Assembly: GCA_963708075.1 (NCBI GenBank)
Contig: OY970194.1
Span: forward strand, 64,001-128,000
Reading direction: 5' to 3'
Length of the DNA stretch: 64,000 bases
Source of the DNA: Sedimentisphaerales bacterium
Lineage (GTDB): Bacteria; Planctomycetota; Phycisphaerae; Sedimentisphaerales; Anaerobacaceae
Part shown: positions 2,154 to 22,451 of the stretch, in pieces
Position numbering within the stretch: the stretch's first letter is position 1
Layout: every line of letters starts with the position of its first letter
Made by a program: the position numbers and the translations under genes
The notes under the pieces: generated by a model
Told to the model about the DNA's origin: nothing
The model's input: only the letters and a program-made list of their open reading frames with translations
Databases searched by the model: none

Positions 2154-2227
<74 letters not shown>

Positions 2228-4590: not shown

Positions 4591-4635
4591 ATTATCTGAC
4601 TTTTGTCTCCATCTGTCTATAGGGTGAAACCCGAC
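4591..4635 (-). promoter_or_regulatory. Regulon box P1 plus -10, facing the kinase/regulator operon
   Basis: Minus strand GTCGGGTTTCACCCTATAG; GATAAT begins 38 nt after the first T of the box. Confidence 0.7.
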
Positions 4636-4652
4636 TCACCCGATAGTACCGG

Positions 4653-4697
4653 GTAGGGTTTTACCTTATGGAGAACAGCCATCCGATGGCGTAGCGT
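4653..4697 (+). promoter_or_regulatory. Regulon box P2 plus -10, upstream of mlaE-like operon
   Basis: GTAGGGTTTTACCTTATGG; TAGCGT at +38. Confidence 0.7.
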
Positions 4698-4809
4698 ATG
4701 TCTCATGGAAAACCCAGGAATCGACCAGCAGGTCGAAACCGCACGGACGCTTAGGAAACAAGTGACTATCCTATTCGGCTTTACGGCGAGCAGGTGATTG
4801 TGAACTGAG

Positions 4810-5657
4810 ATGCACACTATGTTCGCAGGGCTAACCGAAGTGGTGAGTGGGTTTCAGAGAACACTGATGCGTGTGATTGGCGAATTAGGGGAGATGGCTT
4901 GGGCGCAGTGGGATGAGCTGCGCCATGCGGCGGCGGTGATTGGAACCGTGCTCTACGTTTGTGTTCGGCCGCGATATTGGGTGCGCACGGTGCGACGAGC
5001 GTTTGTGCGGCAGATCGTGGCGATCGGCGTTGAGGCGGTCGGGTTTGTTGGCGGGGTGGCGGTCTTTGTCGGAATCACGGTGGTGGTGCAACTGGTGTTC
5101 TGGGTCGGGGAGGTGGGACAGTCACAAATGCTCGGGCCGCTGCTAGTGGCCGTTGTGGCCCGCGAACTCGGCCCGGTGCTGATCAGCCTCGTGGTGATCG
5201 TTCGCAGCGGCAGTGTGATGGCGACGGAATTGGGAATCATGAAGATCGGCGGGCGGGTTCACGTGCTCGAGGCGCAGGGAATCTCGCCGTTCCTCTATCT
5301 CGTCATGCCGCGAGTGCTGGGCGCAGCCGTGTCCACGTTTTGCCTGACGATCGTCTTTATTCTGGTCGCGCTTGCGAGCGGGTATTTGTTCGGGGCGACG
5401 GTGGGGCAAGGCAGCCGTGATTTGCCGTTATTTGCGGACACCGTGTCGCACGCAGTTCATCCCAAAGACGTGCTCGCCATCCTCAGCAAGAGCATTCTGC
5501 CCGGCCTGTTTGCCAGCGCGTCGTGTTGCATCGGCGGGCTGGGCGTCGACGGGTCGCTGACCGAAGTTCCGCAGGCTGCGCAACGTGCGCCGTGCGCTCC
5601 GTTGCTGGATTGTTTGTGATTTCCACGGTGGTGTCACTCTTGACGTATATCGGATGA
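4810..5657 (+). CDS. mlaE: MlaE-like ABC permease (frameshift near 5585)
   Basis: ARELGPVLISLVVIVRSGSVMATELGIMK...LVMPRVLG; last TM helix (RSVAGLFVISTVVSLLTYIG*) is in another frame. Confidence 0.8.
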
Positions 5658-6367
5658 TGAACGAACCGATCGACATCCTGAGATTCCACGACGTGACGAT
5701 CGCGGCGGACCTCGAGGACGAATCGGGCATCTCCAGCCTGAATTTATCTCTCGCGCCCGGCGATCTGACCGTGGTGTTGTGGGAGACGGAAGAAGTCCGC
5801 ATCCCGCTGGCGGACGTCGCCGAGGGGTTAGTCGCGCCAGTGCAGGGAACGGTCGCGTTCCTCGGCGAAGACTGGCAAACGATGGCGGCGGACCGCGCGG
5901 CCGCACAGCGCGGCAAGATCGGGCGCGTGTTCGAGGGGGGAAGCTGGCTCAGTGGTCTCAACGTGGATCAGAACATCACGCTGGCGCAGCGGCATCACAC
6001 GCGCCGCCCCGTCCAGGAGATCGAGCAGGAGGCGACCGATCTGTGCCGAGTCTTCGGCCTGCCGGGGTTGCCGCGCGATCGGCCCTCGAACGCGCGATGG
6101 CAGGACCTGCAAAAGGCCGCCTATGTGCGCGCGTTTCTCGGCGCGCCCATCCTGATTCTCCTTGAAAACCCCACGGTCGGGATCTACGCTGATGTCATCG
6201 CGCCACTGATCAGCACGGTTCGCGAGGCTCGCGAACGGGGTGCAGCGGTGTTATGGACGACGAATGAACTCCAGGTTTGGAACAATCCCGCTCTGCACGC
6301 GACCTCGCGGTGGCGAATGCTCGGCTCGCCGATGGGCATGATCGAAGAGGTAGAAGAGGCGACCTGA
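5654..6367 (+). CDS. MlaF-like ABC ATP-binding subunit with degenerate motifs
   Basis: ABC scaffold (GLVAPVQGTVAFLG, LNVDQNITL, ILILLENPT) between mlaE and mlaD, but no Walker A or LSGGQ. Confidence 0.7.
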   Translation: MMNEPIDILRFHDVTIAADLEDESGISSLNLSLAPGDLTVVLWETEEVRIPLADVAEGLVAPVQGTVAFLGEDWQTMAADRAAAQRGKIGRVFEGGSWLSGLNVDQNITLAQRHHTRRPVQEIEQEATDLCRVFGLPGLPRDRPSNARWQDLQKAAYVRAFLGAPILILLENPTVGIYADVIAPLISTVREARERGAAVLWTTNELQVWNNPALHATSRWRMLGSPMGMIEEVEEAT

Positions 6368-7329
6368 TGAAACAGCGTTTCAAATTTCGGCACGTGAACG
6401 AGATCACCGGTACATTCGTCATCCTCGTCGTGTTGGTGCTGATCGCCGCCATCGTGTGGACGGCATACAACCAGCGATGGTTCAGACGCACCGTCACGCT
6501 GCGGATCGTTCTGCCCGAGGCGGGTGCAGCGGGCATCCGGCAGGGCTCGGAAGTGTACTTCCTGGGCACGCTCGTGGGAACGGTTTCCGATGTCGTTGTC
6601 GCTGCGACCGGTCGCATGGAAGCCCGGACCAGCATTCGTAGCGACTTCTTCCGATTCGTGCGCGAGGATTCGTTTGCGGTCGTCAAGAAGAAATTCGGCG
6701 TGGCGGGCGATGCGTATTTTGACATCACGCGTGGCGAGGGCCAGCCTTTGCCCAAGAAGAACGCCTCCATCGTCTGCAAGGAGTTGCCAGGCACGTTGGA
6801 AGCTACGATTGAGGAAGCCCGCCGTGCCGTGTTGCCTGTTTTGGAGAGACTGAGCGTGGGCCTCGACACATGGACCACGCTCGGTGAGAACCTGAGCACC
6901 GGCGCGGGCGCGTGGACGAGGCTGGGCACGGATCTGGGCGAGTCCCGGCAGCACTTGGATCAACTTATCGCCCGCGTTGACGGTCTTGCCGCGGGGGTCG
7001 AGCAGGGCAAAGGCACAGCCGGTAAGCTTCTGACCGATCCCGCTATCGCGGACGAGTTGAAGACCATCCTCGACAAAGGCAACGCATCCATGGATCAACT
7101 CCAGGGCATTCTGAAAGACGTGCAGGTCGCCGGCGCCGATCTGTCTGTGGTTAGCGAGGCCCTTGCCGTAGAGGCCAAGGATCTCCCCGGGCTGGTTTTG
7201 CAGACGCAGCAGACGTTGCACGAGCTGGAGAGACTGATCGAAGGGATCGAAAGACATTGGCTGATCCGCAAGTACATCGAGCAGCGACAACCGAACACAC
7301 GCATCCCACCCAGTGAGGTCGTGCCATGA
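6367..7329 (+). CDS. mlaD: MlaD/MCE-domain protein
   Basis: N-terminal TM, AAGIRQGSEVYFLGTLVGTV MCE motif, helical tail GKGTAGKLLTD. Confidence 0.85.
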   Translation: MKQRFKFRHVNEITGTFVILVVLVLIAAIVWTAYNQRWFRRTVTLRIVLPEAGAAGIRQGSEVYFLGTLVGTVSDVVVAATGRMEARTSIRSDFFRFVREDSFAVVKKKFGVAGDAYFDITRGEGQPLPKKNASIVCKELPGTLEATIEEARRAVLPVLERLSVGLDTWTTLGENLSTGAGAWTRLGTDLGESRQHLDQLIARVDGLAAGVEQGKGTAGKLLTDPAIADELKTILDKGNASMDQLQGILKDVQVAGADLSVVSEALAVEAKDLPGLVLQTQQTLHELERLIEGIERHWLIRKYIEQRQPNTRIPPSEVVP

Positions 7330-8112
7330 GAAGGTTCTTCATCGCCCTGACTCTTCTGACGCTGGTCGGCTGCGCCACCTCGCCGACTTCGACTGTGCCA
7401 CCTAAAGACAAGGAACTTTCGCGGACCAGCCACCTCGCCCGCGCCGCATTCGAAGACGGTGCGACCGCCCAGGCCATCGATCTTTACAGGAAAGCACTGA
7501 ACCGGGCGATCGCTATGGACGATGCCACGGAGATCGGCAACGCCGCCTACAACCTCGCGCTTTGCCACATCATCCTGGGACAACTCGATCAGGCGAGTGC
7601 CTCGCTCGCCGAGGCCAAGGCGGAGGTCAAACGCAGCGGAAGCAATCCCGCCGACGTGCTGCTGTTGGAGGCAACGGTCGCTCAACGGCAAGGCAAACTG
7701 GAGCAGGCGCTGTCGCTGGTCGACCAGGTGCTGTCGGCATCATCCGACGAAAGCCATCGCTTTCAAGCGGCGTTGCTGAAGGGGACCATTGCCTGCGCAA
7801 GACGACCCGGCGAGTGCCAGGGCCGCGCTGGTCGAGGCGGACAAGCATCACATCACCAATGCCGCACTGCTGGCCGCCAGGGAACGACTCGCCGGAAACA
7901 TCTTCTTGCTGGAGGGGAATCCGGCCGAGGCCGCAGCGGCGTTTGACCGTGCAGCGGTCTTGTTCCAAAAGGCGAGACACTATCGCGACATGGCGCTCAC
8001 TTTGCGGCGAGCAGGCGAAGCGTATCGGGAGGCAGGCGACACGCAACGCGCAGAGGACCGGCTGTCTCGCGCCGAGCGCAGCCTGACCGCCCAGGGGGAG
8101 AACGCGGAATGA
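7326..8112 (+). CDS. TPR-like lipoprotein (frameshift near 7795)
   Basis: Lipobox LVGC; Ala-rich TPR-like helices continue in ORF 7789..8112. Confidence 0.7.
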
Positions 8113-8268
8113 GCTCATCGCAAGCCTTCCCTCCTCGTCGCGGGCAATAACGTGACCAGCCACCAGGTGCTGAACCTCCATCTCTTACGTCAGGACCACG
8201 GTGTCACGGCCTGTGGAACTCTCCCGGCGGCCGGGTCCCTTTCCGGGGAGCGAGACCAACAATCCCGG

Positions 8269-8313
8269 GTAGGGTTACACCCCATAGGAAAGGACCGACT
8301 CATGGCGTACCCT
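8269..8313 (+). promoter_or_regulatory. Regulon box P3 plus -10
   Basis: GTAGGGTTACACCCCATAG; TACCCT at +38. Confidence 0.75.
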
Positions 8314-8475
8314 GGTTTATGAAAAACATAACAGCGAAAACACAGAAGGCTGGAGAACCAGATGACCGTGGAGGAAACCAGGAACAAGGAGGGTCCCTGA
8401 TCGCTGCCGGCTGGTGACGGAGGCGCCAGCCAGCGGTGAACCATGGCCGATTGAAAGGAGAATCCCGTGTTTTGA

Positions 8476-8616
8476 ATGACTGCCGCCATACTGGTATTCC
8501 TGTGGCTGCTGGGGCTGGCGAGCGGTCACACCGTGGGAGGATTCATTCATCTCCTGCTGGTACTTGTTCTTATCGTGGTGCTCATCGGGATCGTTGATGG
8601 GCGACGACCCGTGTAA
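8476..8616 (+). CDS. lmo0937-family small membrane protein, copy 1 (not in ORF track)
   Basis: MTAAILVFLWLLGLASGHTVGGFIHLLLVLVLIVVLIGIVDGRRPV*; RBS GAAAGGAG precedes GTG TTT TGA ATG at 8467. Confidence 0.75.
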   Translation: MTAAILVFLWLLGLASGHTVGGFIHLLLVLVLIVVLIGIVDGRRPV

Positions 8617-8717
8617 GAAGCGGCTGTGCAACCGCGCTCGTTGCGATGTTTCGCGCGGCAGGCAAGCCAAATATCGACAATCAGGCACATCGGCTGTTAC
8701 ACTCTAAGGAGGTTCAC

Positions 8718-9188
8718 ATGAAAGGTAACACGAAGATCATTGACGTGCTCAATGCGCTTTTGAGCGATGAGCTTACGGCGATCAACGAGTACATGGTACA
8801 TTCCGAGATGTGTGCCAACTGGGGCTACGACCGCCTGCATAAAGCCGTCGAAAAGCGGGCCGTCGATGAGATGAAGCACGCGGAGAAGCTGATCGGAAGG
8901 ATTCTGTTCCTGGAGGGCACGCCGGTCGTCAGCGAGCTGAAGACGATCCGTATCGGTTCCGACGTTCCCAAGCAGTTTGCCAACGATCTGGCCGCCGAGA
9001 TGACGGCGATTAAGAACTACAACGCGGCGATTTCCGTAGCAACTGACGTTGGCGATAACGCGACCCGAGAAATGCTGGAGGGGATCCTCAAGGAGGAAGA
9101 CGGTCACGTGGACAAGATCGAGGAGAACGTGGATCAAATCGATCAGATGGGCGTCCAGAACTTCCTGGCAACGCAGGCAAGAGAATAA
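8718..9188 (+). CDS. bfr: Bacterioferritin
   Basis: MKGNTKIIDVLNALLSDELTAINEY...DEMKHAEKLIGRILFLEG...EEDGH; ferroxidase residues and heme Met present; RBS TAAGGAGG. Confidence 0.95.
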   Translation: MKGNTKIIDVLNALLSDELTAINEYMVHSEMCANWGYDRLHKAVEKRAVDEMKHAEKLIGRILFLEGTPVVSELKTIRIGSDVPKQFANDLAAEMTAIKNYNAAISVATDVGDNATREMLEGILKEEDGHVDKIEENVDQIDQMGVQNFLATQARE

Positions 9189-9302
9189 GCACCCAAGGCT
9201 TGCTCGGACGTACAGCTAAGGAGAAGGTCAAGACTGTATGCGTGAGAAGGTGACGAAGCAGTGCTAGGGCAAGGAGAGACTCTCAGCACGGCAGAGCTGT
9301 GA

Positions 9303-11936
9303 ATGAAAGCTGCAAAGAAGACCCTGAACGCATCTCATCGCCCGGGCAACCTCCTTGGCGGGAACGGGACGCATTATTCCCGTCAGCTATTGGAACATGC
9401 GCGTGCCGATACAGATACCGTCCTGCAGGAGCTTGGATCGCGACTAACCGGCCTGAGCGAGGCCCAAGCCGATTTTCGCTTGAAACAGGTCGGGATGAAC
9501 GAGATTGCCCGAGAGAAGCATCCATCTGCCGTGATGCGCCTCTTGGCTAACACCAAGAATCCATTGGTCCTCCTGCTCCTGGCGCTGGGCGTGCTTTCAT
9601 TTCTAACCGGTGACCTGCAGGCCATGGTGGTCATTTTCGTGATGGTGGTTCTGGGGGTGGTGTTGCGTTTCTTCCAGGAAACGCGTGCCGATAACGCGGC
9701 CGAGAAGCTAAAAGCGATGGTCAGCAGCACGGCGGCATTGGTGCGAGGCGGTAAGGAGGAAGAAGTATCGCTCAAGATGTTAGTGCCTGGCGATATCATC
9801 CGGCTGGCAGCGGGTGATATGGTGCCGGCTGATGTACGGGTGCTTTCCGCCAAAGACTTGTTCCTGAATCAGGCGACCCTCACCGGCGAAGCCCTGCCCG
9901 TGGAAAAGAAAGCCGCCCCGGCGTCGGCAGACGTTCAGAATCCGCTCGATCTGCCCAACATCTGCTTCCTGGGCTCCAACGTGGAGAGCGGATCCGCGAC
10001 TGCCGTGGTCATCCAAACCGGAGGCCGCACCTACTTTGGCTCGCTGGCTGCCAGCATCGTCGGGCAGCGCCAACTCACCAGCTTCGACAAGGGCGTGAAC
10101 AAGTTCACCTGGCTGATGATCCGCTTCATCGCCGTAATGGTCCCGGCTGTCTTCCTGATCAACGGGCTGGGCAAGCACAACTGGCTGGAAGCTTTCCTGT
10201 TTGCCATGGCGGTGGCAGTCGGGCTGACCCCCGAGATGCTGCCCATGATTGTGACCGTCAACTTGTCCAAGGGCGCCCTCGCGATGGCGCGCAAGAGCGT
10301 GATCGTCAAACGCCTGAACGCCATCCAGAACTTCGGGGCGATGGATGTGCTGTGCACCGACAAGACCGGCACCCTCACCCAGGGCAAGATCGTGCTCGAA
10401 AAGTACCTGGACCCGCACGGCGACTCCAGCGAGAAGGTGCTGCACTACGGCTACCTGAACAGCTACCACCATACCGGGTTGAAGAACCTGCTCGACGAGG
10501 CCGTCCTCGCCCATGAGGAACTGGAAGAACGCCTGAAAGCGAACCAGGAGTACCGCAAGATCGACGAGATTCCTTTCGACTTTGTGCGTCGGCGCATGTC
10601 GGTGGTGGTGGAAGACAGAACCGGGTTGAACACGCTGATCTGCAAGGGTGCGGTGGATGAAGTGATGAGCCTGTGTACCCGGGTGGAAGTCACAGGGGAA
10701 GTCATCGAGGTTCTGCCCGAGCACGACGCCAAGCGCCGGCAGTTGGCGGACGATCTGAGCGGTCAGGGCTTTCGGGTAATCGCCCTGGCTTACAAGCAAA
10801 TGCCGGGCTCGTCTGATGAGCCGGTGTACTCGGTCCAGGATGAGTCGGACTTGATCCTGTTGGGTTTCCTGGCCTTCCTCGACCCGCCCAAGGACACCGC
10901 TACAGAGGCGTTGAATCGGCTTCACAGCCTGAACGTGGACGTCAAGGTCCTGACCGGGGATAATGAGATCATCACCGCCTACATCTGCAAGGAAGTGGGC
11001 ATACCGGTGGAGCATCTCCTGCTCGGCTCCCAGATCGAGACGATGAGCGAGACGGAATTGGCCGAAGCCGCCGGCGCGACCAGCGTCTTTGCCAGGCTGG
11101 CCCCGGCTCACAAGGAACACATCATCCGTGCGCTCCAGAGTAAAGGCCATGTGCTGGGGTTCATGGGCGACGGCATCAACGACGCCCCGGCCTTGAGGGC
11201 CGCCGATGTGGGCATCTCGGTGGACAGCGCGGTGGACATCGCCAAGGAGTCATCCGATCTCATCCTGCTGGAAAAAAGCCTGCTGGTACTGGAGCAGGGC
11301 GTGCTGGAGGGCCGGCGGGTGTTCGGCAACATTGTCAAGTACATCAAGATGGCGGCCAGCTCGAACTTCGGCAACATGTTCAGTGTCGTGGGGGCCAGCG
11401 CATTCCTGCCTTTCCTGCCCATGCTGCCAATCCAGGTGCTGACCAACAACCTCCTGTACGACTTCTCGCAGACCACCATCCCGACTGACGAGGTGGACGC
11501 CGAGTGGCTGACCAAGCCGCGCAAGTGGTCGATTGGCAATATCCTGCGATTTATTCTGTTTATCGGGCCGATCAGCTCGATCTTTGATTACGTGACGTTC
11601 TTCACGATGCTGTACGTTTTCAACTGCCGGCATAACCCGGCTCTGTTCCACACCGGCTGGTTCGTGGAGTCGCTCTTCACCCAGACGTTGATCATCCATG
11701 TCATACGCACCAACAAGATCCCGTTGATCGAAAGCCGGGCGAGTTGGCCGCTAATCCTCACTTCCGCAATCATCGTCCTGGTCGGCGCCGCCCTGACGGT
11801 TTCACCTCTGGCGAACACGCTCGGCTTTGTCCCACTCCCGTCGCTGTACTGGCTGTTTTTGGTCATCATGCTGCTGGGCTATGCGATTCTGACACAGGTG
11901 GTGAAAACCCGGTTTACTCGCAGGTTTGGCGAATGA
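9303..11936 (+). CDS. mgtA: Magnesium-translocating P-type ATPase
   Basis: TGEA, LTPEMLP, DKTGTLT, KGAVDE, GDGINDAPAL, MAASSNFGN, NLLYD motifs. Confidence 0.93.
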   Translation: MKAAKKTLNASHRPGNLLGGNGTHYSRQLLEHARADTDTVLQELGSRLTGLSEAQADFRLKQVGMNEIAREKHPSAVMRLLANTKNPLVLLLLALGVLSFLTGDLQAMVVIFVMVVLGVVLRFFQETRADNAAEKLKAMVSSTAALVRGGKEEEVSLKMLVPGDIIRLAAGDMVPADVRVLSAKDLFLNQATLTGEALPVEKKAAPASADVQNPLDLPNICFLGSNVESGSATAVVIQTGGRTYFGSLAASIVGQRQLTSFDKGVNKFTWLMIRFIAVMVPAVFLINGLGKHNWLEAFLFAMAVAVGLTPEMLPMIVTVNLSKGALAMARKSVIVKRLNAIQNFGAMDVLCTDKTGTLTQGKIVLEKYLDPHGDSSEKVLHYGYLNSYHHTGLKNLLDEAVLAHEELEERLKANQEYRKIDEIPFDFVRRRMSVVVEDRTGLNTLICKGAVDEVMSLCTRVEVTGEVIEVLPEHDAKRRQLADDLSGQGFRVIALAYKQMPGSSDEPVYSVQDESDLILLGFLAFLDPPKDTATEALNRLHSLNVDVKVLTGDNEIITAYICKEVGIPVEHLLLGSQIETMSETELAEAAGATSVFARLAPAHKEHIIRALQSKGHVLGFMGDGINDAPALRAADVGISVDSAVDIAKESSDLILLEKSLLVLEQGVLEGRRVFGNIVKYIKMAASSNFGNMFSVVGASAFLPFLPMLPIQVLTNNLLYDFSQTTIPTDEVDAEWLTKPRKWSIGNILRFILFIGPISSIFDYVTFFTMLYVFNCRHNPALFHTGWFVESLFTQTLIIHVIRTNKIPLIESRASWPLILTSAIIVLVGAALTVSPLANTLGFVPLPSLYWLFLVIMLLGYAILTQVVKTRFTRRFGE

Positions 11937-12005
11937 GGGCGGTGACGCGGAGCATGCATTCATGAAGCAAGAAATCACGATAGGACATTCCATGGAGGTG
12001 GTAAG

Positions 12006-13487
12006 ATGACGGATGTGGGGGACAGACAACACCGCTCTATCCTGCAAAGAATTGCCCATCGGGTGATGCTTGAAAGAGGACTTGCTCCGGATTTTCCACT
12101 CCAGGCACTCGCCGAGCTCGACAAAATCCACGGGCCAGCGAAGCGAGTTGAGGAATCGACACGTGATCTCAGGGACCTTCTCTGGTGCTCCATCGACAAC
12201 GAGGATTCGCGAGATCTGGACCAGCTTACCGTCGCCGAAGCCATGCCCGACGGGGCCACAAAGGTCCTTGTCGCCATTGCCGATGTAGACGCGGTTGTCA
12301 AGAAGCGATCGACCCTCGATGATCACGCGCGGCACAACACCACTTCAGTCTACACTGTGGCCGAGACGTTTCCGATGCTGCCCGAGAAACTCTCGACCGA
12401 TCTTACCTCGCTCAACTACGAATCAGACCGCCTGGCCATCGTTGTTGAAATGGTTCTCGCCGCGAATGGATCGCTTCAGCGTTCGGACCTTTATCAAGCG
12501 GTGGTGCATAATCGTGCAAAGCTTGCCTACAACAGCGTTGCCGGCTGGCTGGAGGGTAACGGGCCGCGGCCGCAAGGGATTGGCATGGTTCGCGGTCTCG
12601 ACGAGAACCTTCGACTCCAGGACCTCGCGGCCCAGAAACTGAAAGCGATGCGGCACCTGCACGGTGCACTCCATCTCGAAACGATAGAAGCACGCCCGGT
12701 GTTTGACGGAGACGAGCTCAAGGACTTCGCGGCCGAAACAGGGGACAGGGCCAAGGACATCATTGAGGACTTCATGATCGCCGCGAATGGCGTTACCGCA
12801 CGATACCTTGCGTCCAGAGATGTCCCATCGCTGCGGCGTATTGTCCGCACACCCAAACGCTGGGACCGGATCATCGAGCTTGCCTCAGAGCGGGGCTTCA
12901 CGCTTCCCAAGGAGCCCGACTCAAAGGCCCTGGAGCAGTTCCTGGTATCGGCAAAGACCGCTGATTCTCTCCGTTTTCCCGATCTCTCTCTCAGCGTCAT
13001 CAAGCTGTTGGGTAGCGGCGAATACGTCGTCGAACTTCCGGAAAGCAGTGCCGCCGGGCACTTTGGTCTTGCGGTCAGGGATTACACACACTCCACAGCC
13101 CCCAACCGCAGATACCCCGATCTGATCACACAGCGGTTGCTGAAAGCCGCGATGACGGAACGGTCCCGGCCCTATGAGACCGCAGAATTGGAGATGCTTG
13201 CAAAGCACTGCACCGAAGAAGAGGACGCCGCGAAGAAGGTCGAACGACAGGTTGAGAAATCCGCAGCGGCAATGCTGCTCGAATCGAGAACTGGAGAACG
13301 GTTCGATGCCGTTGTCACCGGCGCATCCGACAAAGGCACGTGGGTCCGCCTTCTGCATCCGCCCGTGGAAGGAAGACTGGTGAGGGGTTTTGAAGGCATG
13401 GACGTCGGCCACAGGCTCAGCGTGCAACTGATCCGCACGGATGTGGATCGCGGATACATCGACTTCAAGAGGCAAGGGGTACAATAA
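12006..13487 (+). CDS. RNB-domain ribonuclease (short RNase II/R-like)
   Basis: SIDNEDSRDLDQ, VAIADV, IEDFMIAAN, HFGLAVRDYTHSTAPNRRYPDL, C-terminal S1-like domain; lacks N-terminal cold-shock domains. Confidence 0.9.
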   Translation: MTDVGDRQHRSILQRIAHRVMLERGLAPDFPLQALAELDKIHGPAKRVEESTRDLRDLLWCSIDNEDSRDLDQLTVAEAMPDGATKVLVAIADVDAVVKKRSTLDDHARHNTTSVYTVAETFPMLPEKLSTDLTSLNYESDRLAIVVEMVLAANGSLQRSDLYQAVVHNRAKLAYNSVAGWLEGNGPRPQGIGMVRGLDENLRLQDLAAQKLKAMRHLHGALHLETIEARPVFDGDELKDFAAETGDRAKDIIEDFMIAANGVTARYLASRDVPSLRRIVRTPKRWDRIIELASERGFTLPKEPDSKALEQFLVSAKTADSLRFPDLSLSVIKLLGSGEYVVELPESSAAGHFGLAVRDYTHSTAPNRRYPDLITQRLLKAAMTERSRPYETAELEMLAKHCTEEEDAAKKVERQVEKSAAAMLLESRTGERFDAVVTGASDKGTWVRLLHPPVEGRLVRGFEGMDVGHRLSVQLIRTDVDRGYIDFKRQGVQ

Positions 13488-13585
13488 GAGACAGGCGTGC
13501 CTTCAAACCGCACATCGACCACCACCTCGCGGGCACTGAGACTGTCGGGACATGGACCTTACGTCAGTTTCTGGCCTACTGGAAG

Positions 13586-13630
13586 GTAGGGTTATACCCC
13601 ATAAACAAGGGCCAGCCCATGGCGTATCAT
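13586..13630 (+). promoter_or_regulatory. Regulon box P4 plus -10
   Basis: GTAGGGTTATACCCCATAA; TATCAT at +38. Confidence 0.75.
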
Positions 13631-13746
13631 ACATCCGATGCCGGCTTGTACGGGAACCATACAGGGTTGACGGAGTCTTCCCCGCTGGAAGCTCCCGATG
13701 AGGCCTGAGCCAAACACGTGAAGACAGTGAATAGGAGATGCACATC

Positions 13747-14286
13747 ATGTCAAAGCAGAATTCGACCGTAGCGATTTTCAGTGACCACACAGGGGCCGAG
13801 CATGCCGTCAAGGAACTCCAGAAGGCCGGCTTTGACATTAAGAAGCTGTCCCTCGTAGGCAAAGACTACCACTCGGATGAGCACGTGGTGGGATACTACA
13901 ACACGGGTGACCGCATCAGGTACTGGGGCAAGCTGGGCGCATTCTGGGGCGGCTTCTGGGGCTTGCTCTTCGGGTCGGCCTTCTTTTTCATTCCCGGAAT
14001 CGGCCCGATCGTTGTAGGCGGTCCGATCGTATCGTGGATCATCGGTGCCCTGCAAGGGGCCGCCATTGTCGGGGGTATCAGCGCTGTTGGCGCGGCACTG
14101 TACAGCATTGGCATTCCCAAAGACAGCGTGCTCAAATATGAGACCTCTCTCAAGGCGAACAAGTTTCTTCTGGTCGTTCACGGAACCGCTGACGAAGTGG
14201 AAGGAGCCAGCGGTATCCTGCAGGGTACGGACGCGATCGAGACAACGGTTCACAGGGTCGAAGAACTGGCAACGACAGCGCCCTAA
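13747..14286 (+). CDS. General stress protein 17M/DUF1269-like membrane protein
   Basis: AEHAVKELQKAGFDIKKLSLVGKD, Gly-rich GAFWGGFWGLLFG...IPGIGPIVVGGP, GIPKDSVLKYE. Confidence 0.75.
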   Translation: MSKQNSTVAIFSDHTGAEHAVKELQKAGFDIKKLSLVGKDYHSDEHVVGYYNTGDRIRYWGKLGAFWGGFWGLLFGSAFFFIPGIGPIVVGGPIVSWIIGALQGAAIVGGISAVGAALYSIGIPKDSVLKYETSLKANKFLLVVHGTADEVEGASGILQGTDAIETTVHRVEELATTAP

Positions 14287-14378
14287 GACCGGAATCGCAG
14301 AGCGCCCTTGTTCAAGGGCACACTTGATGTCGTCGAACCTTGACAGTGCGGCAAGATGAGCGGTGAAAGGGGGATCCT

Positions 14379-15269
14379 GTGGATCCGATCACGGTTGCTG
14401 TGTTTGTTGTAGTTGCGGTGGTGGTGGTCATTTTTCTCTCGGGCATAAGGGTAGTCCGTCCCACCCACAGGGGCCTTATTGAGAGACTCGGCAGGTACAG
14501 GCATTTTGCGGCACCGGGTTTCAACTGGATCATTCCTCTTGTTGACAGGATGATTCAGATCAACACTACGGAGCAGATGGTGGACGCCCAGCCACAAGAG
14601 ATCATCACCAACGACAATCTCAATGCGAGCGTGGATGCCCAGGTCTATTTCAAGGTCAAGGATGACGAGGACAGCGTCAAGAGTTGCCAATACAATGTCA
14701 ACAACTACCAGTTTCAGATTGTCAACCTCGCCCGCACCACACTACGCAACATCATCGGCACGCTGACGCTGAAATCGGCCAACAGCGAGAGAGACAAGAT
14801 CAACACCTCACTTCTGGAGACGTTGACCAGGGAAACCAAGCACTGGGGAATGGAGATCGTCCGGACGGAGCTGAAGGAGATCGACCCTCCCAAGGACGTC
14901 CAGGAGACCATGAACAAGGTGGTCAAGGCGGAAAATGAGAAGGTCGCGGCCCTGGATTTTGCCGATGCGGTGGAGCGGCAGGCAGATGGAGTCAAGAGAG
15001 CGGAAATCAAGAAGGCCGAAGGGATCAAGCAGGCCAAGATTCTTGCGGCCGAGGGCGAGGCCGAGGCCATAAAGCTCGTCAACGAGGCGGCAGACAAGTT
15101 CTTTACCGGCAACGCACAGCTTCTTCGAAAGCTCGAGGCCGTTGAGAAATCCCTGAGCAGAAACGCAAAAATCGTCATTCCTTCTGGTTCTGAACTCGTC
15201 AATGTGATCGGAGAAATGGCCGGCGTCTTGCCGCTGACGGACAGAGTAACGCCCATGCAGCGAAAGTAA
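14379..15269 (+). CDS. SPFH/Band 7 family protein
   Basis: N-terminal TM; GLIERLGRY, PQEIITNDNLNASVDAQVYF, LARTTLRNIIG, coiled-coil tail. Confidence 0.9.
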   Translation: MDPITVAVFVVVAVVVVIFLSGIRVVRPTHRGLIERLGRYRHFAAPGFNWIIPLVDRMIQINTTEQMVDAQPQEIITNDNLNASVDAQVYFKVKDDEDSVKSCQYNVNNYQFQIVNLARTTLRNIIGTLTLKSANSERDKINTSLLETLTRETKHWGMEIVRTELKEIDPPKDVQETMNKVVKAENEKVAALDFADAVERQADGVKRAEIKKAEGIKQAKILAAEGEAEAIKLVNEAADKFFTGNAQLLRKLEAVEKSLSRNAKIVIPSGSELVNVIGEMAGVLPLTDRVTPMQRK

Positions 15270-15293
15270 CTGCTGAGAAGGGAGGAATCTCGG

Positions 15294-16774
15294 ATGAATG
15301 TCCTTTTGATCTACCCCGAGTTCCCGGATACGTTTTGGAGCTTCAAGCACGCGCTGGAGTTCGTGGGCAAGCGGGCGGTGCTGCCGCCGCTGGGGCTTTT
15401 GACCGTGGCGTCCATGCTGCCGCGGGAATGGTCGCAACGGCTCGTGGACACCAACGTCCGGCGTCTGACGAAAAAGGACCTGGCCTGGGCCGACTGCGCG
15501 TTCATCAGCGCCATGGTTGTCCAGCGTGAATCTGCGCATCGGGTTATTGCCCGATGCAAGGAGGCAGGTCTGCCGGATCGTGGCGGGCGGTCCGCTGTTC
15601 CAGATCGAACACGAGAAGTTCGAGGCCGTGGATCATTTCATCTTGAACGAGGCCGAATTGACGCTTCCGGCCTTTCTCAAAGACCTGGCGCAAGGCAACC
15701 CGGAGCGGATCTATTCGTCCGTCGAGCACGCGGATGTGCGGCAAACGCCTCCGCCTATGTGGGAACTGCTTGACCTCAGACGATATGCCAGCATGAGCAT
15801 CCAGTTCTCTCGCGGCTGCCCCTTCAACTGCGATTTCTGCAATGTCACGGCTCTGCTCGGCCATCGTGTGCGCACCAAAACCTCCCAGCAGGTTATCGCT
15901 GAACTCGACAGCCTTTACGCTTGCGGCTGGCGCGACGAGATCTTCTTCGTGGACGACAACTTCATCGGAAACAAGCAATTCCTGAAGAACGATCTCCTGC
16001 CGGCCCTCATCGAATGGCGCAAGGGCAAGACCGGAATCCTCTTCTTCACGGAAGCCTCCATCAATCTGGCGGATGACCAACTATTGATGGAGATGATGGT
16101 GGAGGCCGGATTCAACCGGGTCTTCATCGGCATCGAGACCCCGGACGAGGAGTGCCTGGCCGAGTGCAGCAAGATCCAAAACAGGAACCGAAACCTCGTG
16201 GAAGACGTGAAGCGCATCCAGCGAGCCGGGCTTCAGGTGCTGGGCGGATTCATCGTCGGCTTCGACCACGATCGGCCCTCCATCTTCCAGAGGCAGATTG
16301 ACTTCATCCAGAAGAGCGGCATTGCGACCGCCATGGTCGGCTTGCTGCAAGCCCCTCCCGGAACGCGGCTGTATGAGCGGATGAAAAAGGAAGGCCGTCT
16401 TCGCGGGGACCCGACGGGAGACAACGTCGACGGCACCACGAACATCATCCCGGCGATGAGCCTGGAGGCTCTGAAGGAAGGCTACAAAGGAATTCTGCAG
16501 CACATCTATTCCCCGGAACACTACTACCGGCGCATCCGGACCTTTCTCCGAGAATACCAGCCACCCCGAGTACGAGGACGGATCCGGTTCTCGCACATCC
16601 TTGCGCTCGCTGCGGTCGTTCTATCGACTCGGCCTTGTGGGCCAGGGGCGGTTACACTACTGGAAGCTCCTGCTTTGGACCCAGTTCCGGCGCCCCCGGC
16701 TCATTCCCGAGGCCGTCATGCTCGCGATCTGTGGCCATCATTTTCGCAAGGTCTGCGAACGGCGAGTGAAGTAA
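15294..16774 (+). CDS. B12-binding radical SAM protein with DUF4070-like tail (two frameshifts, near 15570 and 16610)
   Basis: FPDTFWSF...PPLGLLTVA; SRGCPFNCDFC; FFVDDNFIGN; tail YWKLLLWTQFRRPRLIPEAVMLAICGHHFRKV in a third segment. Confidence 0.85.
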
Positions 16775-16811
16775 CGCCGCCGGCAGAAAGGAACGACAAA
16801 GGAGAAAATCG

Positions 16812-17237
16812 ATGAAGACAAGAGTGGGTTTGTGGATTGACCATCGGAAGGCGATTGTCGTGGCTATCACGGACAAAGGGGAAGAAACACGATTGATCAT
16901 ATCGAAGGTGGAAAGACAGCTCCGCCGCTCTGGGGATTCACCTCTGGAGGGAGCCTATGACAAAGCGCAAGCACCGGCACGCAATAGCCGCCAGAGAACG
17001 CTTACGGCCCATCTCAACATTTACTATGATGCGGTCATTGCGTGCATTCGTGATGCCGAATCCATTCTGATATTTGGCCCTGGTGAGGCCAAGGGCGAAC
17101 TGAAAAAGCGGCTCAAAAAAAGCAACCTCAATGGACGCATCGTGGGCATGGAGACCGTTGACAAGATGACGGATCATCAAGTTGCGGCGAAAGTCCGACA
17201 GCATTTCCAGGACACCAGCGGTCCGCGTCGGACTTGA
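16812..17237 (+). CDS. eRF1-middle-domain-like (baeRF/host-attachment-like) small protein
   Basis: VGLWIDHRKAIVV...YYDAVIACIRDAESILIFGPGEAKGELKKRL...ETVDKMTDHQVAAKVRQHF; RBS AAAGGAG. Confidence 0.6.
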   Translation: MKTRVGLWIDHRKAIVVAITDKGEETRLIISKVERQLRRSGDSPLEGAYDKAQAPARNSRQRTLTAHLNIYYDAVIACIRDAESILIFGPGEAKGELKKRLKKSNLNGRIVGMETVDKMTDHQVAAKVRQHFQDTSGPRRT

Positions 17238-17304
17238 GATGGCGAACGAGCAGGACTTCGCAGCGGGCAAGTCTGTTTCCGGGCAGTAGGTCCAATGATT
17301 GCGG

Positions 17305-17349
17305 GTAGGGTTATACCCCATAGAGAAGGCCCCACCCATGCAGTACCAT
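17305..17349 (+). promoter_or_regulatory. Regulon box P5 plus -10
   Basis: GTAGGGTTATACCCCATAG; TACCAT at +38. Confidence 0.75.
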
Positions 17350-17525
17350 GTCTTCATGGGCATATCTAAGAATGTAGCAACAGAAAGAAACCGGCGTGAG
17401 GAGCGCAAAGAAGCAAATGACCATGGAGGGGGGGGCACCAGCCGGCAGGCTAAGGGATCGCCACTGGCTGGTGCATCCATGCGTTAACCGGTGGTGAACT
17501 CATGGCTAATCGAAAGCTGAATCAT

Positions 17526-17675
17526 ATGTGGTGGACAGTCGCTGTAATAATGATCATTCTGTGGCTGCCGGGACTGCTCAGCGGGTACACGGCAGCAGGG
17601 GTAACTCACATCCTGCTGTCGCTTGCCCTTGTCGTGGTGCTATTCCGGATAATGCAGGGGCGACGACCGGCGTAA
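17526..17675 (+). CDS. lmo0937-family small membrane protein, copy 2 (not in ORF track)
   Basis: MWWTVAVIMIILWLPGLLSGYTAAGVTHILLSLALVVVLFRIMQGRRPA*. Confidence 0.75.
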   Translation: MWWTVAVIMIILWLPGLLSGYTAAGVTHILLSLALVVVLFRIMQGRRPA

Positions 17676-17867
17676 GAGGTGGTCAGGCGGCAGCGCGCGT
17701 CATAACGAAAATGCGACACAAGAAGGAAAGGACAATGGCTATGCTCTATGTTTCACACTTTCGCCGCCGTGTTGATTTTGGGCCCACGAAGGCATTCGGA
17801 CGGCCCGCAGGATGTTGGGGGATTGGACCGCGAACCAGACATTTGGACAATAAGCTAAGAGGTAATC

Positions 17868-18164
17868 ATGGCAACGATAGCCGCAGTTACGGAGCTTCAA
17901 CCTACAGATCGCCGTAGATCCCAGAGTGCAGGTCACGACCAGGGGCGTGATACCTCGCCGACTTGCGATGCATTGCTGGAGCACATCCTTGAGAACATGA
18001 ATACCACGCCTCAGGAGGAGGCGTTGAGAAGGATCACATCTCTTCCCGACATCCGACGAGACAAGGTGCTGGACATCCGCCGTCAGCTTACGGAGGGGAC
18101 CTACGAAGTGGCGGATCGGCTGGATGAGGCGATAGATCGGGTACTGGAGGCGATCACCACCTGA
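17868..18164 (+). CDS. FlgM-like anti-sigma-28 domain protein
   Basis: C-terminal PDIRRDKVLDIRRQLTEGTYEVADRLDEAIDRVL matches the FlgM sigma-binding pattern. Confidence 0.65.
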   Translation: MATIAAVTELQPTDRRRSQSAGHDQGRDTSPTCDALLEHILENMNTTPQEEALRRITSLPDIRRDKVLDIRRQLTEGTYEVADRLDEAIDRVLEAITT

Positions 18165-18276
18165 TCGCTCAGGCATTCCTACTGTTGGCACGACGATTCC
18201 GACGCCTGCAATCATGTGGTGCTGCTTGTCAGGCGTTGCGAATAGGAAACCGCGGAATGTTGTGAGGGATCGACCC

Positions 18277-18714
18277 ATGAAGCTCCCAGCCATTTGCCTG
18301 ATTGTTCTCGTACCCGCCTGGTTTGCCGTAGCGTCGGCACAGGCGGCAGCCATGGCCCCCAACGGCATCGAGCGACTGCTGGACGCCATTGCCCGTATCG
18401 AGAGCCGCTGTGACCCCAATGCGGTCGGCGATGGCGGCAGAGCTCTCGGTGCCTACCAGATTCACCGTGTCTACTGGGAGGACGGCACGGAACTCCTGGG
18501 TGTCGATTGGCCTCATCGGGACGCGACTGACCCGAAAAAGGCTCGGCGGGTAGTGAAGGCCTACTTGCTCCACTATGGCAACGGCAAGAGCCTCATCGAG
18601 ATGGCCCGCATTCACAACGGCGGGCCGTGCGGTCACAAGAAGAAGGCCACCGTGTGCTACGCGAGGAAGATCCTGGCTGACGGAAGTCTGCTGCCGGGAT
18701 TACACGCTCCATAG
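18277..18714 (+). CDS. Secreted lysozyme-like protein (i-type lysozyme/destabilase-like)
   Basis: Signal peptide; AIARIES, GAYQIHRVYWED, ARIHNGGP motifs. Confidence 0.65.
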   Translation: MKLPAICLIVLVPAWFAVASAQAAAMAPNGIERLLDAIARIESRCDPNAVGDGGRALGAYQIHRVYWEDGTELLGVDWPHRDATDPKKARRVVKAYLLHYGNGKSLIEMARIHNGGPCGHKKKATVCYARKILADGSLLPGLHAP

Positions 18715-18933
18715 TCGCTGAATCTCCTCATCCACTGAGGCCTGTTAGCGTGTTTGCCTCTTTGGGTCTGGCACGCCTTCGAAACAAAGGTGCTTGATGA
18801 ACCGGGAGTTTACGCCTCTTGTCAGCAGTGGTTTCGGGACAGCCTGTTTGGGCCTCCCACGGCGGCGAAGAAGATCGACATTCCAGCATACGCACAATTC
18901 CTGAAACGAGGAACAAGCAAGAAAGGACCTGTC

Positions 18934-20433
18934 ATGCGAATCGCGATGTTATCCTGGGAATCATTGCACTCCATTGCCGTTGGAGGAGTCGCCGCCCATG
19001 TGACTGAATTGGCGGCTGCGCTGGCCAGGACAGGGCACCAGATCCATGTGTTTACGCGTCGCGCCTTTGGCCAGGCAGCTCACGACTGGACGGATGGGGT
19101 TCATTATCATCGGTGCACGTACCCGCCCCACGATGATTTCGTGGATGACGTCAACAACATGTGCCGGTCTTTTGTGGATCATGTCTTCGAGGTAGAGGAT
19201 ATGGTCGGCCGCTTCGACATTGTCCATGCACACGATTGGCTGACGGCCAACGCGATGATCTGGATCAAGCAGGGCCGCGGACACAAATGTCTGTTTACGA
19301 TCCACTCGACCGAATATGCCCGCTGCGGCAACGCCTTCCCAGCGGGTCGATCCGACCGTATCCGTTACCAGGAGCGGGCGGGGACCTACTGGGCAGATCG
19401 CGTGATCGCCGTCTCACAGGCGACCAAAGACGAGATCACCTGGATGTACGAGGTGCCACCCGGGAAGACGTCGGTGGTGTACAACGGCGTCAGCCCACAA
19501 CGCTTTGATCAACCTACCGACCCCGGCGCAGACAAACGGCACTATCACATCGGCCCCCTGGATCCCACGATCTTGTTCTGTGGTCGGCTATCCTGGCAGA
19601 AGGGCCCCGATATCCTGGTCGAAGCCATTCCTCCAATCCTCCGACGACATCCATCCTCGCGTTTCGTGTTTGCCGGTGATGGGGATATGAGGGATGCGCT
19701 GGAGTCGCGCATTCGCCAATTGGGCGTGGCGCACGCCGTGCGGTTCCTGGGCTATCGCAATGGAGATGAGCTGGTCCGCTTGTACAAGCTGGCGGAAGTG
19801 GTTTGCGTGCCAAGCCGCAATGAGCCATTCGGGATCGTCGTGCTCGAGGCCTGGAGCGCCGGCAAGCCGGTCATCGCAAGTCAGAACGGCGGTCCCGCGG
19901 AGTATGTCCGGCATGAAGTGAATGGGCTGAAGATCTACCCCAGTCCCGAGTCTGTTGCCTGGGGAGTGGGCCGCATGTTCTCCGATCTGGACCGGGCTCG
20001 GTGGATGGGCCGGAATGGACGGAAGGCGGTGCAGGAACGGTTCACCTGGGACACAATCACGGAACAAATGCTGGCCGTATACCAGGGGCTGTGTCCAAGC
20101 CGTGTAATGCTGCCGCACCGAGCGGTTGATAGAGTCCGGGCAGTGCTTGCGGAATCTCCCTGTGAGACATCGTGGGCCGGCGCCGTGGAGGAGAACTCGC
20201 TGGCGGTCATTGGCGTGGAGGGAACACATGGTTCATGCATTTCTGTGCAAGCCAGGCGCCATATCAGGGCCGCAGACCCCGAGGGACAAACTGACGACGC
20301 CTTGACCGCCGTCAAACGCTGTAATCAGCATAGGCGACGATTCCACGTACACCACAAACAGCAGCCGAGCATCGAAATGACGGCAGTTCCACAGGAAGTT
20401 CCGGCGGAGGATCTCGTGCTCGCGGCCCCTTAA
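18934..20433 (+). CDS. Glycosyltransferase family 4
   Basis: MRIAMLSWE...GGVAAHV, DIVHAHDW, GRLSWQKG, EPFGIVVLEA; low-similarity C-terminal extension. Confidence 0.9.
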   Translation: MRIAMLSWESLHSIAVGGVAAHVTELAAALARTGHQIHVFTRRAFGQAAHDWTDGVHYHRCTYPPHDDFVDDVNNMCRSFVDHVFEVEDMVGRFDIVHAHDWLTANAMIWIKQGRGHKCLFTIHSTEYARCGNAFPAGRSDRIRYQERAGTYWADRVIAVSQATKDEITWMYEVPPGKTSVVYNGVSPQRFDQPTDPGADKRHYHIGPLDPTILFCGRLSWQKGPDILVEAIPPILRRHPSSRFVFAGDGDMRDALESRIRQLGVAHAVRFLGYRNGDELVRLYKLAEVVCVPSRNEPFGIVVLEAWSAGKPVIASQNGGPAEYVRHEVNGLKIYPSPESVAWGVGRMFSDLDRARWMGRNGRKAVQERFTWDTITEQMLAVYQGLCPSRVMLPHRAVDRVRAVLAESPCETSWAGAVEENSLAVIGVEGTHGSCISVQARRHIRAADPEGQTDDALTAVKRCNQHRRRFHVHHKQQPSIEMTAVPQEVPAEDLVLAAP

Positions 20434-21137
20434 GGACATACTGATGGCACATGCCTGAGAATCCTGTCATTCTCCCCGTTTTTTACCGGCTTCGACGATC
20501 GGCTGTGGTCGATGGAGTTCGCCCGTAATTGTTGTCTCTCGTGCACGGAAGGCGAGGTCGAAAATGAGTATTCAATTTTGGTCGCAAGGCATTATTCTTG
20601 TGAACTTGCCTTGCAGGGCTCCGATTCGCCTGCCACAACGTCTTCCGGAGTAGCCCTTCCCAGTCCATGCCGTCATCCGCCGCTGTATCGAGGGCCGCTT
20701 TGATTGCCAGGAATAACCGGATGTTCTGTTCGGCCGTATCCAGTCTGTCCCTCTCGCCCGTAGGTAAAATGCTGCGGTAGTTGGGGCGAAATCCCTATTT
20801 GTGCGGGCGGCAGGCTTTGGCAAAGGTGGGGGAATGGTGTTCCAGGACATAAATCTTGTCTTTGCGTTGTTTGGATTCGTGTTTCTGATGCTCCTGTTCA
20901 GGGTGCCATTTGCGGCGGGGACGATCAAGACAGGCGTATTCCGCTTCACCCACTCCATGCAGATTCCACGTCTGCGGACTTTCGTAGACAGGCACGAAGT
21001 CCACAGGCGGAATTCCACGAGTACATAGGAAAAAGCACGGGGCTGTTTATCAGCCTCTCGCCACCGGCAGTCTGGATGGCTGCGGGCTAGGCCGCGAATC
21101 TCTGGGGGGTTCTCAGGGTAGTTGAAGGAGATTTGTC

Positions 21138-21599
21138 ATGTCAACACGTGCGAGCATCTATCGTCATCCCATCCATCCGATGCTCATCGTCTTCCCGCTG
21201 GGTCTGTGGATCTTCTCCGTCATCTGCTACGCGGTCTACCTGCTCAGCAGCGTGCCGGTGTGGCGTACGGTAGCCCTGTACGCGATGGCAGGGGGAATCG
21301 TCGGCGGGGTCATGGCGGCGATCCCCGGCGTGATTGACTTTCTGACGCTTCCCAAGTCAAGGGTGCAGACCATCGCACTGTCGCACATGATCTCGAACGT
21401 TGTTGCCCTGACTATCTTCATCATCACGTTTGCCTTGGCCGCGTTTGGACGCGAGCACAGCGTGGTTCCGTTGATCCTGGCCGCGTTTGGCCTGTTGGCA
21501 GTGGGCACGGGCGGCTGGCTGGGGGGAGCGCTCGTATATGAGCACGGCGTCGGTGTCGAGCACCTGCAGAGGCAGGAGGCCGAGTACCAGCACGTATAG
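21138..21599 (+). CDS. DUF2231 membrane protein
   Basis: HPIHPMLIVFPLGL...GGWLGGALVYEHGVGV; RBS GAAGGAG. Confidence 0.85.
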   Translation: MSTRASIYRHPIHPMLIVFPLGLWIFSVICYAVYLLSSVPVWRTVALYAMAGGIVGGVMAAIPGVIDFLTLPKSRVQTIALSHMISNVVALTIFIITFALAAFGREHSVVPLILAAFGLLAVGTGGWLGGALVYEHGVGVEHLQRQEAEYQHV

Positions 21600-21692
21600 G
21601 ACTAACGCCAACCACATCAGGTGGCAAACAGCAGCATTTGTGCGGCCCATTCCTCCACTTGCTGATCTTCCTCAGCCTTTTGACTCGGATAA

Positions 21693-21737
21693 ATAGGGGA
21701 ACACCTTACTGACCCTGTGCCTGGCGGCCTGTACATT
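21693..21737 (+). promoter_or_regulatory. Regulon box P6 (divergent copy) plus -10
   Basis: ATAGGGGAACACCTTACTG; TACATT at +38; upstream of the DUF1328-CsbD-ElaB block. Confidence 0.5.
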
Positions 21738-21927: not shown

Positions 21928-22110
21928 ATGGGTCTGTTAGGGTGGGCGTTGGCTTTCCTGATCGTGGCCGGCATTGCGGCGATATTCGGGTTTGGCGGTA
22001 TAGCCTCCGCCGCCGCAGGCATCGCCAAAGTACTGTTTTTCGTCTTCGTAGCCATTTTCGTCGTGTTGCTCGTCCTCGGATTACTTGGCGTCGGCGCAGT
22101 CACTGCATGA
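21928..22110 (+). CDS. DUF1328/UPF0391 small membrane protein
   Basis: [38 protein letters not shown]. Confidence 0.9.
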
Positions 22111-22221
22111 CGGTCTGACGCAGGGGATCCCCCAACGGCTGTTCGCAGGATCACGGATGGTCGGACGGACAAACAAGAACCGGGGACTGCGCCTGGTGGA
22201 ATGGATAGAAGGGAACTCACG

Positions 22222-22398
22222 ATGAGTACGCTGTGCCAGAGAATGATCAGCCTGTTTATGGCGTTAGCGCTGACGGTGAGCACTATGGTCGTCCTGTCCG
22301 GCTGCGAAAGGAAATCAAAACCCGAGCGAGTCGGAGAAAAAGTCGGCGAAGCGGTCGAAGAGGCAGGCGAAGCGGTGGAGGAGGCGGGACGAGGGTAA
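22222..22398 (+). CDS. Small lipoprotein
   Basis: Lipobox LSGC then PERVGEKVGEAVEEAGEAVEEAG repeats. Confidence 0.65.
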   Translation: MSTLCQRMISLFMALALTVSTMVVLSGCERKSKPERVGEKVGEAVEEAGEAVEEAGRG

Positions 22399-22451
22399 TA
22401 CTGCCAACTGTTGTGACAGGCGTTGCACTACTCATGGGAAAGGGTATAGAG

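Follow-up and report, generated by a model that had tools for sequence, protein, structure and literature searches.

A predicted NarL/FixJ-family regulon marked by a promoter-proximal box in a Sedimentisphaerales genome and its uncultured relatives

Introduction

The DosR/DevR system of Mycobacterium tuberculosis comprises an autoregulated NarL-family regulator, HisKA_3 kinases and a palindromic box placed before stress genes. Here we describe a 64,000-nucleotide (nt) stretch of a Sedimentisphaerales genome (Planctomycetota; assembly GCA_963708075.1, contig OY970194.1, positions 64,001 to 128,000; hereafter the window, with positions counted from its first letter), in which a soluble kinase and a NarL/FixJ-family response regulator adjoin a set of 15-bp boxes, each standing in front of a promoter-like pair of hexamers. 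Based on sequence comparison, we propose with a probability of about 0.8 that the boxes are operators of the adjacent regulator, which would activate its own operon as well as stress-type and envelope operons. DevR is a sequence relative of this regulator, but the DosR/DevR system differs in its box, its haem-GAF sensors (none here) and its targets.

The closest solved DNA-binding domains include those of SsrB (Salmonella) and EsrB (Edwardsiella; E 9e-14), and the relatives of the regulator in the PDB further comprise LiaR/VraR, NarL and DevR. SsrB reads an 18-bp degenerate palindrome of 7-4-7 geometry and tolerates one weak half (PMC2837388). The same geometry, compared as geometry and not as base sequence, is seen in a symmetric box form of the relatives described below, whereas the present genome uses an asymmetric 7-3-7 form, its targets are wholly different from those of SsrB and EsrB, and its kinase is soluble and carries an RsbU-N-like domain. 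Escherichia coli NarL belongs to the same family and has the same HisKA_3 class of kinase, and a single NarL dimer site abutting the -35 element suffices for activation at yeaR and ogt, the ogt site being centered at -44.5 (PMC7419079). The NarL site is, however, 7-2-7 with another consensus, the regulator reaches 140 versus 250 bits on the NarL model, and no nitrate-sensing input is found here. RcsB, also of the NarL/FixJ family, has asymmetric, oriented heterodimer sites and envelope and stress targets, but the regulator is distant from it (86 versus 235 bits), with no Rcs phosphorelay and no identified partner here. For NreC, the box is described only as “GC rich palindromic” (PMC8139620).

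Promoter Architecture and Genomic Distribution of the Boxes

A first-pass annotation of the window had reported six copies of one operator-plus-promoter architecture, and all six 15-mers are present where it placed them, with first T at 4634 (minus strand, box 4620-4634), 4654, 8270, 13587, 17306 and 21694. Judged by the gene positions in the window all six are intergenic, and in every case a -10-like hexamer starts exactly 38 nt after the first T. A -35-like hexamer lies directly 3' of each box and 17 nt before the -10, the final base of the right arm of the box serving also as the first base of this hexamer. The promoter that we term P1 (4591..4634, minus strand) consists of the box at 4634-4620, TAGACA at 4619-4614, the 17-nt spacer and GATAAT at 4596-4591; it faces the kinase-regulator operon, agrees with the sigma70 consensus at 10/12 positions and has an equivalent site in relatives. 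Divergent from P1, box 4654 (4654..4697; TGGAGA and TAGCGT) faces an Mla-like operon on the plus strand, the strand that also carries boxes 8270 (8270..8313; TAGGAA and TACCCT), 13587 (13587..13630; TAAACA and TATCAT), 17306 (17306..17349; TAGAGA and TACCAT) and 21694 (21694..21737; CTGACC and TACATT). The -35 and -10 hexamers of these target promoters match only 1-5 of 6 consensus positions each.

Five of the copies are clear, but the sixth is not. With a matrix built from 113 sites of related loci, P1 and boxes 4654, 8270, 13587 and 17306 score 28.5, 30.7, 38.2, 34.8 and 39.0, whereas box 21694 is degenerate and, with a score of 13.5 and rank 33 in the genome, falls in the background range. 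A pattern built from the window sites gave five matches versus none in 100 shuffles, a circular count given that the pattern derives from the same sites, and a 16-mer consensus allowing up to three mismatches recovered the same five sites, versus 0.62 expected, while missing 21694. We regard 21694 as a doubtful site that is weak, decayed or due to chance; the first two are possible because it stands upstream of families found behind boxes in relatives (CsbD and DUF883). As had been claimed, the box is an inverted repeat, although an asymmetric and imperfect one, and matches to the right half by itself are not enriched for a -10 in this genome (1/211), which implies that both halves matter and points to a dimer site rather than to a -35 signal of a sigma factor. 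The boxes also stand before runs of genes, the operon limits being deduced from gene order.

Scanning the whole genome with the same matrix recovered 18 sites scoring at least 20.9, the next one scoring 17.2. These sites fall in four places, namely the window (5), 4.100-4.127 Mb (9), 2.062-2.063 Mb (3) and 5.129 Mb (1), and 14 of the 18 belong to the two regulator-encoding islands. Among the 13 sites beyond the window, which provide a noncircular comparison, 10 have A and T at -11/-7 at offset +38, versus a background of 3.9%, and a further site fits when the offset is +39. In the 4.1-Mb island are genes for a regulator copy that is 92% identical and for a PAS kinase that is 71% identical over the catalytic part and lies behind a CheB/CheR-PAS gene. 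This second regulator could read the same boxes, judging by its similarity, and the two islands and two outlying clusters are therefore likely to form one regulon of approximately 18 promoters.

The second cassette (genome 4095496-4101321, L001) comprises the regulator, the PAS kinase, a split CheB/CheR-PAS gene and two RsbU-N-type stubs. Its promoter at 4100737 has kept the -35 and -10 of P1 with an eroded box, the box itself being preserved in an upstream copy at 4101321. At genome positions 2659550 and 2765338 there are related palindromes followed by a -10 at +38, and the former, ∼6 kb from a NarL paralogue of 47% identity, may be part of a separate regulon.

Conservation of the Box and Co-occurrence with the Regulator

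A search with the regulator recovered at least 584 relatives, of which the best 80 loci were analyzed. These are mostly from Verrucomicrobiota but include Planctomycetota, Acidobacteriota, Omnitrophota and Kiritimatiellota. The box has 136 matches in 52/80 loci, versus 4-6 in five local shuffles. In 113 sites picked by the 15-bp box alone, conservation does not extend beyond the box, the two hexamers and the start region (T15 98%, G17 84%, C18 66%, T38 61%, A39 84%, T43 83%), with TAnnnT at +38 in 61 sites and in no more than six at any other offset from 20 to 59, and with C replaced by purines at +49 to +51. An ATG/GTG peak at +50/+51 (36 starts among the 113 sites) raised the possibility of leaderless mRNAs, which we rejected, only 14 of these starts opening at least 50 codons; the peak is read mainly as a start-site preference. 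The recurrent families behind boxes (132 sites), counted by locus, are DUF5670 (18 loci), the kinase cassette (15), BON (11), ice-binding-like (6), AMPK-CBM (6), DUF883 (6), CsbD (5), YflT (4), MlaE (4) and DUF3309 (3).

The box and the regulator co-occur across genomes. Fifty of the 80 loci were represented by regulator-bearing genomes, 39 of which contain the exact box, with none for the reversed control. Within the class of the host the exact box, in a pattern one position stricter, was found in 1/200 other genomes, where no close regulator was found, and a query with the helix-turn-helix (HTH) domain matched, at 68-69% identity, only two other genomes, neither of which has the box. Among 151 genomes of one Verrucomicrobial order, 39 have both, five the box only, 25 the regulator only and 82 neither, and all 20 genomes with at least three sites carry the regulator; counting either exact box form, the numbers become 45, 10, 19 and 77, respectively. 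In 300 genomes of the host phylum the box occurs in 5/8 regulator-bearing genomes versus 7/292 others, the reversed control having matched in 4/301. Twenty loci were taken from regulator-bearing genomes that mostly lack boxes; nine of these have the helix KTVEKHRQQV, with a candidate site in only 2/9.

The box also stands upstream of the regulator's own cassette in relatives. A site scoring at least 13 is found within 700 nt in 15/39 RsbU-N-type cassettes with enough upstream DNA, versus 0/39 internal controls, and many of the remaining cassettes have a symmetric form ∼80-145 nt upstream, often with G at -12 as in P1. Two forms can be distinguished in the relatives: an asymmetric 7-3-7 form, GTAGGGT-N3-ACCCCAT, with 103 matches (83 with a -10) and a fixed orientation, and a symmetric 7-4-7 form, ATGGGGT-N4-ACCCCAT, with 152 strand-hits, many palindromes being counted twice; shuffles gave 0-3 matches of each. 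Across the 80 loci 26 have both forms, 19 the asymmetric form only and 17 the symmetric form only. The spacer is 17 nt in 79/93 cases for the asymmetric form, and 17 or 18 nt for the symmetric one. No regulator residue was found that separates loci by box form (best p 0.004, uncorrected).

In one clade of a quick regulator tree the recognition helix reads KTVDKHR in place of KTVEKHR, and the own-promoter palindromes of L026, L031, L032 and L108 have the arms TCCCCGAT (a near form in L042), as opposed to CACCCCAT with the E-helix. None of the other 74 loci shows the TCCCCGAT arms. Six more loci with the D-helix were compared: in L108 the variant occupies the corresponding position, and in L110 and L112 variant-like sites are found elsewhere. 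The coupling of helix change and operator change is suggestive, but it is imperfect and probably reflects a single event. The variant residue may correspond to a base-contacting one of NarL. It lies in the recognition helix, identified as alpha9 for RcsB (PMC5758874). Regulators with the helix KTVEKHREHIM (L037, L060 and L086) have divergent boxes in their loci, a possible second helix-operator variant.

The Regulator and Its Kinase

The regulator (225 residues, 2640..3317, minus strand) matches Pfam Response_reg (4.5e-26) and GerE (4e-19), with receiver residues D56, S84 and K106 and the recognition helix KTVEKHRQH, features that identify it by sequence as a NarL/FixJ-family response regulator. 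It falls below the curated family cut-off as an orthologue of NarL, SsrB, UvrY, RcsB or MctR, the best being MctR with 208 versus 300 bits. The adjoining kinase (379 residues, 3349..4488, minus strand) has a Pfam HisKA_3 domain with H-box histidine H180 and the N and G boxes of the ATPase domain, and lacks a membrane segment (top 19-residue hydropathy 0.82). Its closest named relatives are from Sedimentisphaerales and Phycisphaerae.

The N-terminus of the kinase appears to be an RsbU-N/KaiA-like helical domain. It has a weak RsbU_N match (Pfam E 1e-4, below cut-off), RsbU_N scores above the Pfam cut-off in truncated paralogues of the kinase in two relatives, and the top profile match is 1W53 (E 0.049). 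The kinase model (predicted local distance difference test 88) was compared by a VIA-align search, in which KaiA (Z 9.1, root mean square deviation 3.1, 88 aligned), a stressosome protein domain (8.8) and RsbU-N (Z 7.7, root mean square deviation 4.3, 74 aligned) all gave values in a range common for helical bundles. The kinase columns aligned with RsbU E24 and Y28 are variable.

Kinases with an RsbU-N domain have been described beside rsbT (PMC12143880). The weak resemblance to such stressosome kinases and to RsbT-RsbU of Bacillus subtilis suggested a stressosome input, which is not supported, as no rsbRST-like operon was seen near any of the 13 STAS matches in the genome (7.5 Mb in a single contig, 93% complete) when open reading frames were read by eye. 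KaiC was rejected as the ligand of the kinase domain, 7 of the 12 KaiC loci having shown no RsbU-N-type kinase and each having its own kinase downstream; CheB/CheR also occurs in 12 of the 80 loci. KaiC does lie inside the RsbU-N kinase cassette in L033, L058 and L062, and elsewhere in the host genome (3786503-3788885, L103) genes for a PAS protein and a HisKA_3 system come after a KaiC-KaiB-KaiB run. A truncated twin of the kinase (RsbU-N-like plus DHp, with no ATPase domain and with the histidine often Q or R) lies directly upstream of the kinase in L013, L014, L015, L017, L029, L043, L059, L084 and others; the window cassette has none.

Gene Content of the Window

The gene block is bounded on the left by a tRNA-Arg(TCG) (2153..2228, plus strand), the sole match of an Rfam scan of positions 1-30,000 and a possible integration point; the genome contains no duplicated tRNA 3' end of 15-25 nt, and viral contigs gave no exact match to a 20-mer. 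All downstream genes are on the plus strand. Behind box 4654 are genes for MlaE, an ABC ATPase, MlaD and an apparently frameshifted TPR protein (4810..8112); behind 8270 a DUF5670/lmo0937-family small membrane protein, bacterioferritin, a Mg2+ P-type ATPase and an RNase II-family protein (8476..13487); behind 13587 a YflT-domain protein, an SPFH protein, a radical SAM protein that is frameshifted in the assembly and a 141-residue protein without assignment (13738..17237); and behind 17306 a DUF5670 protein, an FlgM-like protein, an SLT/destabilase-like protein and a GT4 glycosyltransferase (17502..20433). A stress-type block behind 21694 (21928..24565; DUF1328, CsbD, DUF883, YgaP-like and hemerythrin genes) is of uncertain membership in the regulon and is barely covered by contigs of relatives that cover the remaining block.

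CsbD, YflT, BON, Dps/ferritin and small membrane proteins are typical targets of general stress responses. The families of this type found behind boxes are YflT, DUF5670 and bacterioferritin in the window, and BON and CsbD in relatives. The earlier description of the targets as five stress operons is nevertheless overstated, since others are envelope or metabolic functions (the 4654 operon encodes an Mla-like ABC transporter and is not a classic stress operon) and the 21694 site is doubtful.

Several further features accompany these genes. A conserved leader of ∼150 nt precedes the DUF5670 genes (8320-8475 and 17356-17501; also in L001 and L004), and is predicted to form a 16-bp hairpin before the ribosome site, in which only 2/27 pairs show a compensatory change; the leader has no Rfam match. 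The DUF5670 copy behind 8270 has a stop (∼8467-8476) at the Trp3 of its paralogues, and the next ATG still gives a 46-residue Pfam match. At 15573 and 16609 some contigs of relatives have one base fewer, which suggests that the radical SAM frameshifts are assembly errors. FlgM-like (anti-sigma-28-like) genes lie behind a box in both islands (window 17868-18164; genome 4122071-4122430). The block at 21138-28541 combines stress-type and glycosylation functions (DUF2231, CsbD, hemerythrin, oxidoreductase, epimerase) and may be of an origin separate from that of 2600-20400. Promoter starts were sought in 4 of 22 listed public runs, all 22 consisting of contigs, and showed no pile-up of ends; these contigs come from relatives, most being 85-99% alike to the window, and their thin cover beyond position 20,700 is only a hint.

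Discussion

We envisage that the soluble kinase phosphorylates the NarL/FixJ-family regulator, whose phosphorylated dimer would bind the box beside a weak sigma70-type -35 and recruit sigma70-type polymerase to weak promoters, thereby amplifying the regulator via P1 and switching on stress-type and envelope operons. Binding by this protein, its dependence on phosphorylation, activation, positive feedback and induction by stress are all steps that we infer. The earlier proposal that the regulator activates its own operon and five others is supported by comparison with respect to the link between box and regulator family, the site at its own operon and the activator-like position, and is overstated as to the “five stress operons”. 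The spacing would put the center of the box near -43 and the transcription start at approximately +50/+51. The fixed phase to the -35 and -10 agrees with the “class II” label that had been applied, but this term names a position only, NarL bound at -44.5 on ogt being described as contacting the alpha subunit (PMC7419079).

Several observations weigh against this interpretation. The matrix from relatives was seeded with boxes of this genome. Several box copies are duplicates, and they are not all independent because 8270 and 17306 duplicate one promoter-leader-DUF5670 module, whose leader is homologous at four other sites too. In the order sample both exact box forms are missing from 19/64 regulator-bearing genomes and the regulator from 10/55 box-bearing genomes, and Fisher p values overstate the association because the genomes are related and incomplete. 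Of the D-helix loci, L123 and L106 carry arms of a canonical-like type and in L124 no site was seen, and the helix-operator change, confined as it is to one clade of the 82-row tree, may be one event. Lastly, the local box is asymmetric and no residue separates the forms, which leaves room for a partner protein.

Such a partner is the basis of the rival that survives best, in which the regulator would pair with a second GerE-type protein to read the asymmetric 7-3-7 box, its homodimer being restricted to the symmetric 7-4-7 box, as for RcsB and its partners. The occurrence of two discrete forms, often in the same locus, and the fixed orientation of the asymmetric one would fit this arrangement, for which the asymmetric and oriented BglJ-RcsB site is a precedent (PMC3950696). 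However, the present genome has 17 asymmetric matches versus one weak symmetric match, no second HTH family was seen in the islands, and SsrB tolerates a degenerate half-site and loss of the spacer (PMC2837388). We consider a heterodimer unlikely.

It is less probable still that the regulator binds the box to repress or damp the promoters. The end of the right arm overlaps the -35-like hexamer and P1 is already close to the sigma70 consensus, but the position of the box, in fixed phase and upstream of the core promoter, and the poor target hexamers speak against repression. Weak -35 and -10 hexamers are expected in activator-dependent promoters.

Alternative sigma factors usually control stress gene sets of this kind, and the element could in principle be the extended promoter of such a factor, with the regulator a mere neighbor. 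The element is directional and rigidly spaced and an FlgM-like gene is found behind a box in both islands, yet two inverted half-sites are needed, the -10 has the sigma70-type T/A/T pattern and no sigma factor family recurs in four or more loci (open reading frames of at least 80 residues), making this explanation very improbable. The view that the repeats are duplicated promoter cassettes or mobile-element ends without a regulator is largely refuted: boxes 8270, 17306 and four others do share a homologous leader and the flank of 13587 recurs at 4.114 Mb, but conservation in relatives is confined to the box, -35, -10 and start region, and the boxes, which are found before many unrelated families, follow the regulator from genome to genome.

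Returning to activation by the adjacent regulator, the set of boxes is real and extends beyond the window, with five of six sites firm, a likely link to the regulator and “stress” a partly apt description. A more speculative extension, which we put forward tentatively, is that Planctomycetes, Verrucomicrobia and some neighbors rely for their general stress response on a two-component module that moves horizontally and on the housekeeping sigma factor instead of an alternative one. One regulator would read both geometries (7-3-7 and 7-4-7), which would tier the targets, and the inputs would be interchangeable among an orphan kinase of the RsbU-N/KaiA-like type accompanied by a kinase-dead twin, a CheB/CheR-PAS module and a KaiC-KaiB timer.

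The activation mechanism itself is ordinary and of the textbook kind; more unusual are the use of two operator spacings, the presence of an RsbU-N-like kinase where RsbT was not found, and the alternative modules for input. A literature search with five spellings of the box, mostly excluding subscription papers, returned no text containing its sequence, and a search on stress regulons of Verrucomicrobia or Planctomycetes, also mostly outside subscription papers, found nothing on this system and no paper on the control of stress genes in these abundant, mostly uncultured soil and sediment bacteria. The box is shared with many uncultured Planctomycetes and Verrucomicrobia, and it gives a functional context to the small unnamed proteins DUF5670, DUF3309 and DUF2934. 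Since the operator is precisely defined, the regulator is named and the list of targets recurs, the proposed regulon can be tested with one purified protein.

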